A DNA stretch of 1,504 bases from Escherichia coli (GCF_003334335.1 NZ_QOWQ01000105.1), one strand, 5' to 3'. Numbered from the stretch's first letter, positions 299 to 1,051 are shown. Numbers and translations: made by a program. Notes: generated by a model from the sequence alone, not told the origin.

Positions 299-1051
299 AT
301 GGCAACACCAAATCCCCTGGAGCCGGTAAAAGGTGCCGGTACCACTCTGTGGGTTTACAACGGCAAGGCTGATGCTTATGCAAACCCGTTGTCAGACGAT
401 GACTGGCAGCGACTGGCTAAGGTGAAGGATCTGACGCCGGGCGAGATGACGGCAGAATCCTACGATGATAACTACCTGGATGATGAAGACGCGGACTGGA
501 CCGCGACCGGGCAGGGGCAGAAATCTGCAGGTGATACCAGTTTTACGCTGGCCTGGAAACCGGGAGAGGAAGGCCAGAAAGGGCTTATAGGCTGGTTTGA
601 AAGCGGCGATGTCCGGGCCTATAAAATCCGTTTTCCGAATGGCACGGTGGATGTGTTTCGTGGCTGGGTCAGCAGTATCGGTAAGGCCGTGACGGCGAAA
701 GAAGTGATCACCCGCACGGTGAAAGTCACTAACGTGGGTAAACCTTCTGTAGCGGAAGAACGCAGCAAAATTACGCCGGTCAGTGCGATTAAGGTGACGC
801 CGACATCCGGTACGGTGGCAAAAGGGAAAACAACCACCCTGACGGTTTCTTTTGAGCCGGAAAGTGCAACCGACAAGACGTTCAGAGCGGTTTCCGCCGA
901 TCCGTCGAAAGCCACCATTAGTGTGAAAGATATGACAATTACGGTAAACGGCGTGGCGACAGGTAAGGTGCAGATCCCTGTGGTGAGCGGAAATGGTCAG
1001 TTCGCCGCAGTGGCTGAAGTCACCGTTACTGAAGCGGGCGCTGCAGGGTAA
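299..1051 (+). CDS. V: Major tail tube protein, lambda gpV homolog (N-terminal tube domain plus C-terminal Ig-like domain)
   Basis: ATG at 299 preceded by GAGGA; 250-codon ORF ending TAA at 1049-1051. The product ([20 protein letters not shown]...[37 protein letters not shown]...) matches my recollection of lambda gpV very closely over about the first 150 residues. The C-terminal ~90 residues have the alternating hydrophobic/Thr-Val-Ser beta-strand pattern of the gpV Ig-like (Big_2-type) domain. Gene order after U is as in lambda. Confidence 0.95.
767..1048 (+). other. C-terminal Ig-like (Big_2-like) domain region of the major tail protein
   Basis: Residues ~157-250 of the V product ([94 protein letters not shown]) resemble the lambda gpV C-terminal Ig-like domain but with more substitutions than the N-terminal domain. 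Boundaries are approximate. Confidence 0.7.

Follow-up and report, generated by a model that had tools for sequence, protein, structure and literature searches.

Evidence for allelic exchange of the Ig-like domain within gene V of a lambda-like prophage of Escherichia coli

In this work, we analyzed a stretch of Escherichia coli DNA of 1504 nt (hereafter the window), which carries the 3' end of one gene, assigned to U, followed by ORFs of 250 and 143 codons, all of them on the plus strand. The features recognized are listed below, with the basis of each assignment in parentheses:

1–291, plus strand: 3' end of the tail terminator gene U, partial, running off the left edge of the window (annotation of near-identical records)
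299–1051, plus strand: gene V, major tail (tube) protein of 250 aa (ORF; match to the solved lambda gpV chains)
299–766, plus strand: tube-forming N-terminal domain of V, residues 1–156 (Phage_TTP_12 and 2k4q (gpV-N) matches)
631–768, plus strand: conserved block and linker, codons ~111–157, where independent crossovers map (identity profile, breakpoints)
767–1036, plus strand: Ig-like (Big_2) C-terminal domain of V, residues 157–246, the exchanged cassette (Pfam Big_2, 2l04)
1031–1048, plus strand: C-terminal tail EAGAAG, residues 245–250, the last four without a counterpart in lambda gpV (alignment)
1052–1064, plus strand: V–G intergenic spacer, with GGAGG at 1054–1058, 6 nt 5' of the G start codon (sequence)
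1065–1496, plus strand: gene G, tail assembly chaperone of 143 aa (ORF; gpG in RefSeq genomes)
1472–1478, plus strand: slippery heptamer G GGA AAG of the −1 G–T frameshift (in frame X XXY YYZ relative to G)

The ORF at 299–1051 is gene V of a lambda-like prophage, and its product belongs to the gpV family according to profiles, homology, key residues and operon position. The protein matched the solved lambda gpV chains (6p3e_A and others) over residues 1–245 (E 2.7e-126), the NMR structure of gpV-N (2K4Q) over residues 1–153 (E 1.4e-86) and that of gpV-C (2L04) over residues 162–245 (E 2.9e-30). The Pfam family Phage_TTP_12 (PF16461) was found at residues 18–152, covering the full model (1–135; E 1.1e-68), and Big_2 (PF02368) at residues 161–241, covering positions 2–79 of the 79 in the model (E 2.9e-18). 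Since the identity to solved structures amounts to 67–85%, we took the folds of the tube and Ig domains as settled, the C-terminal one being predicted as a gpV-C-type Big_2 domain from its 66.7% identity to gpV-C. Residues D61 and D62, which are located in loop β2–β3 and are required for ring-to-ring growth in lambda (PMC8718954), are present within a block (residues 61–80) that is 100% identical to lambda, and E63 of lambda is kept as well. Furthermore, V is flanked by the end of U and by gene G, in the order of the lambda tail operon, U–V–G–(frameshift) T–H. In near-identical records, U is labelled "tail component protein U" or "phage minor tail U family protein", and the part of it contained in the window is 65–82% identical in nucleotides to lambda U. 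The Pfam family Phage_TAC_2 was matched on an identical G gene encoded in contig L007, described below.

Several additional observations concern the surroundings of V. The part of the window that diverges most from lambda (48–60% nt identity) comprises the ~40 codons of G immediately preceding the slippery site (1381–1470), and constitutes another allele-like segment adjoining the conserved frameshift site. In E. coli IHE3034, the −1 frame is open and leads to a G–T fusion of 290 aa, the same heptamer leading to one of 279 aa in lambda; in IHE3034, RefSeq annotates T not as a frameshift product but as an independent ORF that begins at an internal ATG downstream of the G stop codon. A GTG-initiated ORF of 351 aa lies antisense to V, the spacer and G (392–1447, minus strand), and was rejected as a chance ORF because it contains 1–6 internal stops in lambda, Stx1, PhiR12_1, L007 and PhiR12_2_star. 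Rfam gave no match in the window at gathering thresholds.

The region is widespread in E. coli. A match to it was present in 3,692 of 5,426 complete genomes, the median number of copies per genome being 2 and the maximum 8, and 541 complete E. coli records matched it at 99% or above. By megablast, the window was 99.7% identical to Escherichia phage 204576, ~95% identical to Stx1a-converting and PhiR12-series phages, and ~76% identical to lambda, phage 21 and many Lambdavirus isolates, with U, V and G as the annotated genes. The locus of E. coli IHE3034 differs from the window at 2 of 1504 nt (99.9% identity), and lies in a complete late operon in lambda order (terminase, portal, protease, D, E, FI, FII, Z, U, V, G, T, H, M, L, K, I, J, lom, stf, tfa), so that T, the tape measure gene and M-L-K-I-J follow downstream of G. 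The V products of both loci differ by a single residue, A24G in the IHE3034 protein (WP_000235110.1): codon 24 (nt 368–370) encodes Ala in the window and Gly in IHE3034, the Stx1 and PhiR12 phages, lambda and other aligned relatives. This C/G difference at nt 369 falls in the variable β1–β2 region, and Ala is also found at this position in E. coli STEC17-183; A24 is probably a strain polymorphism. RefSeq has already annotated the V allele of the window in hundreds of E. coli genomes.

Compared with lambda V (NC_001416, 8955–9695), the V protein aligns without gaps over residues 1–246 with 78% identity, although this divergence is unevenly distributed. Residues 1–156 share 132 of 156 amino acids with lambda (84.6%; 79.5% in nucleotides), whereas residues 157–246 share 60 of 90 (66.7%; 64.4% in nucleotides), a difference that was significant at both levels (Fisher p = 0.0014 and p = 1.2e-5, respectively). 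Within the tube domain itself, residues 51–90 and 111–150 are 95–100% identical to lambda and residues 21–40 and 81–110 only 60–70%, loop β1–β2 (residues ~21–40) being 70% identical. The limit between both domains was published as 1–156/157–246 (PMC8718954), and a preliminary description of this DNA had placed the diverged portion at 767–1051; these coordinates are exact, since codon 157 begins at nt 767 and the stop codon ends at nt 1051. The same description had depicted a near-identical tube domain followed by a diverged Ig-like domain with a longer C-terminal tail. Identity is indeed non-uniform, the Ig domain being the more diverged of the two, and the Big_2 assignment is borne out by the PF02368 and 2L04 matches given above, as is the longer product (250 versus 246 aa); "near-identical", however, overstates an identity of 84.6%.

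As for the C-terminal tail, the window protein ends in …TEAGAAG and lambda gpV in …ITVTAS, so that the final two aligned residues are EA instead of AS and four extra residues (GAAG) follow. Among 59 full-length representatives of the family, the segment beyond the final conserved strand (…ITVT) consists of 0 to 8 residues rich in Ala, Gly, Pro, Ser or Thr, the variants including AS, DS, DN, NQ, G, EAGG, DGAAG, EAGAAG, DEAAEPAS and PAAQPTT, among others. The EAGAAG tail accompanies the Ig allele of the window in Stx1 phages, in E. coli Ch1 and in L007. The four extra residues are therefore ordinary length variation within the family, and nothing suggests a distinct function for them.

The distribution of sequence identity among relatives of the window provides direct evidence of the exchange of the Ig domain. 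The isolated phage PhiR12_1 is mostly 90–100% identical to the window at nt 1–713, with a dip to 88% around nt 600–660; identity drops to 50–60% at nt 727–1063, where the dense mismatches stop, and it goes from 85% to 100% at nt 1073–1504, with values of 95–100% beyond nt ~1080. The segment replaced in PhiR12_1 hence comprises the linker, the Ig domain, the C-terminal tail and the V–G spacer, and encodes a Big_2 domain that is 42% identical to that of the window. The same junction, with this third Ig type on a window-type tube, was found in 14 complete E. coli genomes. In PhiR12_2_star, divergence from the window is confined to nt 907–1012 (V codons ~203–238), a patch with 58–65% identity as opposed to 88–100% in the rest of the window, from which it follows that recombination has affected the interior of the Big_2 domain as well as its limits. 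The Stx1a phages (such as Stx1_9793) switch ancestry at nt ~168, in U, and at nt ~1139, in G; they are 92–100% identical to the window between both points, and outside them identity falls to 70–80% in the 5' part of U and 40–60% in most of G. The block formed by the 3' part of U, V and the 5' part of G is therefore a transferable segment in itself.

Recombinants between the window and lambda types were found in both directions. A protein search retrieved 620 homologues, of which the best 120 were scored per domain and 59 full-length representatives were clustered into types. One homologue (83% identical to the window in the N-terminal domain and 100% in the C-terminal one) is encoded on L007, a 36.6-kb Logan contig from a short-read assembly; this contig is lambda-like up to nt 760 and from there on window-like, through 205 informative sites in a row, until the window ends, and none of 10,000 permutations yielded as few runs. 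Among complete E. coli genomes, the best match to the L007 junction was the chromosome of E. coli Ch1, which encodes a V protein (WP_089619996.1) of the same domain combination, with a tube domain 96.2% identical in amino acids to lambda and an Ig domain 100% identical in nucleotides to the window, the switch being placed between V nt 330 and 463 (window nt ~628–761). The reciprocal arrangement is carried by the Escherichia albertii chromosome CP117615, which is window-like at nt ~185–631 and lambda-like from nt 658. For its junction, the best match among complete E. coli genomes was 92.4% identical and none reached 95%, so that the evidence for this junction in finished genomes comes from the E. 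albertii chromosome. The scored homologues also include proteins with a window-type tube (96–97%) and a lambda-type Ig domain ending in …ITVTAS, many of which come from single metagenome or short contigs. Altogether, the four combinations of tube (N) and Ig (C) alleles were found (four-gamete criterion): both domains of the window type in the window, both of the lambda type in lambda, lambda-type N with window-type C in E. coli Ch1, and window-type N with lambda-type C in E. albertii. Among the 59 representatives, the window tube type occurs with five Ig types and the lambda tube type with three; 107 pairs of representatives have N identities of at least 95% with C identities of at most 75%, and 97 pairs show the reverse (N at most 88%, C at least 95%).

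The positions of the crossovers are also informative. The left ones map at nt 631–658 in the E. albertii prophage, ~713–727 in PhiR12_1 and 760–768 in L007, all of them in or just past a stretch (nt 631–720, codons 111–140) in which the window and lambda are 90–97% identical in nucleotides. The right edge of the PhiR12_1 cassette lies in the V–G spacer or in the first codons of G, where identity recovers. The crossovers thus cluster in conserved DNA immediately upstream of the published gpV-N/gpV-C boundary.

The preliminary description had explained the divergence of the Ig domain by either module exchange or diversifying selection. The former is directly supported by the sharp identity steps in PhiR12_1 and by the reciprocal recombinants in the Ch1 and E. 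albertii chromosomes; the latter does not agree, at the level of domains, with the dN/dS values, which are well below 1 in both of them. Pairwise dN/dS was calculated for each domain by the Nei–Gojobori method in eight sequence pairs. Between the window and lambda it was 0.12 in the tube and Ig domains alike. In contrast, dS was 0.95 for residues 1–156 (0.88 for residues 1–143) and 2.27 for the Ig domain, the latter close to saturation (pS 0.71), which makes both dS and dN/dS imprecise for this domain; synonymous divergence was ~2.6 times greater in the Ig domain than in the tube domain (Fisher p = 0.008 on synonymous differences). Pairs that were not saturated gave dN/dS values of 0.05–0.16 for either domain: 0.063 for the Ig domains of lambda and the E. 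albertii prophage and, for the tube domain, 0.094 (window and E. albertii), 0.143 (lambda and L007), 0.051 (window and Stx1) and 0.090 (window and PhiR12_1). The highest value, 0.29, corresponded to the pair differing by the internal Ig patch. In these domain-wide pairwise comparisons, neither dN/dS values above 1 nor a clear elevation in the Ig domain (0.063–0.29, versus 0.05–0.15 in the tube domain) were found. Both domains of V are under purifying selection, although whole-domain pairwise dN/dS may miss positive selection at a few surface sites. As dS is higher in the Ig domain while dN/dS is equal, we read the Ig domain as an older allele rather than as a faster-adapting one.

Taken together, these results point towards an Ig domain of gpV that is a separate allele, swapped between related lambdoid phages by recombination, with both domains under purifying selection; we assign this interpretation a probability of about 0.85. 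The uneven divergence from lambda would then arise because the Ig cassette is an allele of its own, whose history differs from that of the tube domain and is older. Other explanations can be considered. Quite unlikely in our opinion is a difference in rates without any exchange, according to which a less constrained Ig domain would have drifted faster along the same lineage history as the tube domain. It would fit the family-wide figures, as mean pairwise identity is 66% in the Ig domain versus 87% in the tube domain and columns conserved at 98% or above are 11% versus 57%, and also the accessory nature of a domain without which lambda tails still assemble (PMC8718954). Weaker constraint should, however, lift dN/dS, and this was 0.12 in both domains and as low as 0.063 in the unsaturated Ig pair, whereas synonymous divergence was ~2.6 times higher in the Ig domain. 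Moreover, a single shared history cannot produce the sharp identity steps or the presence of all four combinations in finished genomes. Notwithstanding, weaker constraint on the Ig domain does contribute, besides recombination.

Positive selection diversifying the exposed Ig surface, for instance through glycan binding or escape from host factors, is very unlikely. The domain is surface-exposed and contact with carbohydrates has been proposed for it (PMC8718954, PMC10721106), several discrete and deeply diverged Ig types coexist, and the pair differing by the internal patch has the highest dN/dS. Yet none of the pairwise values (0.05–0.29) comes near 1, and most changes relative to lambda are conservative (T/S, V/I, K/Q, A/G). 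In addition, 19 phage records, among them those of Stx1a and Stx2a phages, carry the window-type Ig domain with a protein conservation of 96–100%, and in Ch1 it is 100% identical in nucleotides. Finally, the possibility that the mosaics are assembly chimeras of the multiple lambdoid prophages present per genome, the window representing an unrecombined lineage, can be practically dismissed: despite the up to eight copies of the region in one genome, the many N-window/C-lambda proteins from single short metagenome contigs and the short-read origin of L007, the PhiR12_1 genotype is that of an isolated and sequenced phage, and records deposited as complete chromosomes carry these genotypes (Ch1, CP117615 and the 14 with the PhiR12_1 junction), so that the case for recombination rests on complete chromosomes and an isolated phage and not on short contigs.

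The following model can be proposed for the allelic exchange of the Ig domain. The V product would polymerize through its N-terminal tube domain and show the Big_2 Ig-like domain on the exterior of the tail. The Ig domain, together with the linker, the short C-terminal tail and the V–G spacer, would constitute an allele that is older than the tube domain and of a different history. Homologous recombination would take place within the conserved DNA encoding the last strands of the tube domain (nt ~631–768) and at the conserved start of G, and co-resident lambdoid prophages would in this way reshuffle a small number of old Ig alleles among tube alleles. The most likely route for this exchange is homologous recombination inside a single cell, with lambdoid prophages or infecting phages as the partners.

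It is tempting to ask what maintains the different Ig types. At least three of them exist, 42–67% identical in amino acids to each other and each well conserved internally, and balancing or frequency-dependent selection might keep them, for example if each type suited a particular surface glycan (O-antigen, capsule) or allowed escape from a host or gut-immune factor. We consider this proposal unlikely: old alleles, strong purifying selection within types and free reassortment are compatible with balancing selection, but do not require it. Were it true, the Ig cassette would act on adsorption efficiency as an accessory determinant that reassorts freely.

Regarding function, the 85% identity to the tube domain of lambda suggests that the N-terminal domain builds the tail tube as stacked hexameric rings surrounding the tape measure protein, and the Ig domain may play a role in assembly or adhesion by analogy with lambda. 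In lambda, the Ig domain of gpV is located on the tube surface, where it contacts loop β1–β2 of the neighbouring subunit, and removal of gpV-C lowers biological activity ~100-fold although tails still form (PMC8718954, PMC9022992, PMC12617516). Weak binding of gpV-C to cell-surface carbohydrates has been put forward as a hypothesis, which according to PMC8718954 "remains to be experimentally verified". As every combination of tube and Ig domains is found in natural isolates, any contact between domains must tolerate exchange, and both domains are functionally interchangeable across 15% (tube) and 33% (Ig) divergence. This knowledge could help to engineer display scaffolds based on gpV, or to design isogenic tests for the role of the Ig domain. 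We also searched for the Ig cassette in other protein families by tblastn of residues 157–250 against 50,697 phage records. Matches were obtained in V/major-tail genes only, and at E below 1e-5 nothing pointed to promiscuity across proteins; none of the matches extended past query residue 79, the Ala/Gly tail having apparently been masked by the low-complexity filter.

The V gene described here has close counterparts among known systems. The "phage tail protein" WP_000235110.1 of the prophages of E. coli IHE3034, APEC O1 and ATCC 11775 is encoded by essentially the same gene, and Stx1a-converting phages (LC645428 and others) are 95% identical over nt 1–1138 of the window, their 5' part of U and their G segments being different. 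With lambda gpV (2K4Q, 2L04, 6P3E, 8IYK), the protein shares the Phage_TTP_12 plus Big_2 architecture, the 156/157 boundary and D61/D62/E63, and the window also shares with lambda the gene order U–V–G(–T) and the G–T slippery site; it differs from lambda in its Ig allele (66.7% aa and 64% nt identity, versus 84.6% aa in the tube), in a tail four residues longer and in a G product of 143 instead of 140 aa. The window V is not of the SPP1 gp17.1* type, in which an Ig domain is added by frameshifting, as it is one uninterrupted ORF of 250 codons colinear with lambda gpV, and the sole slippery site in the window is that of G–T.

In the parts of the literature available to us, no specific description of the exchange of Ig-domain alleles of gpV among lambdoid phages was found, only general statements on the mosaicism of Ig proteins. 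Ig-like domains on phage structural proteins are presented there as mosaic and "promiscuous" (Fraser et al. 2006, cited in PMC9022992 and PMC10721106). The situation reported here is textbook lambdoid mosaicism, a known kind of feature, located at a domain boundary inside a gene; its modest value is that of a clean worked example, with little importance beyond correct annotation. It has in common with the modular mosaicism of lambdoid phages and with promiscuous Ig domains that conserved sequence links segments of sharply different origin and that the accessory Ig domain can be exchanged as a unit. Unlike the acquisition of an unrelated Ig family, however, it consists of an allelic replacement between homologous Big_2 domains at the same position of the same protein.
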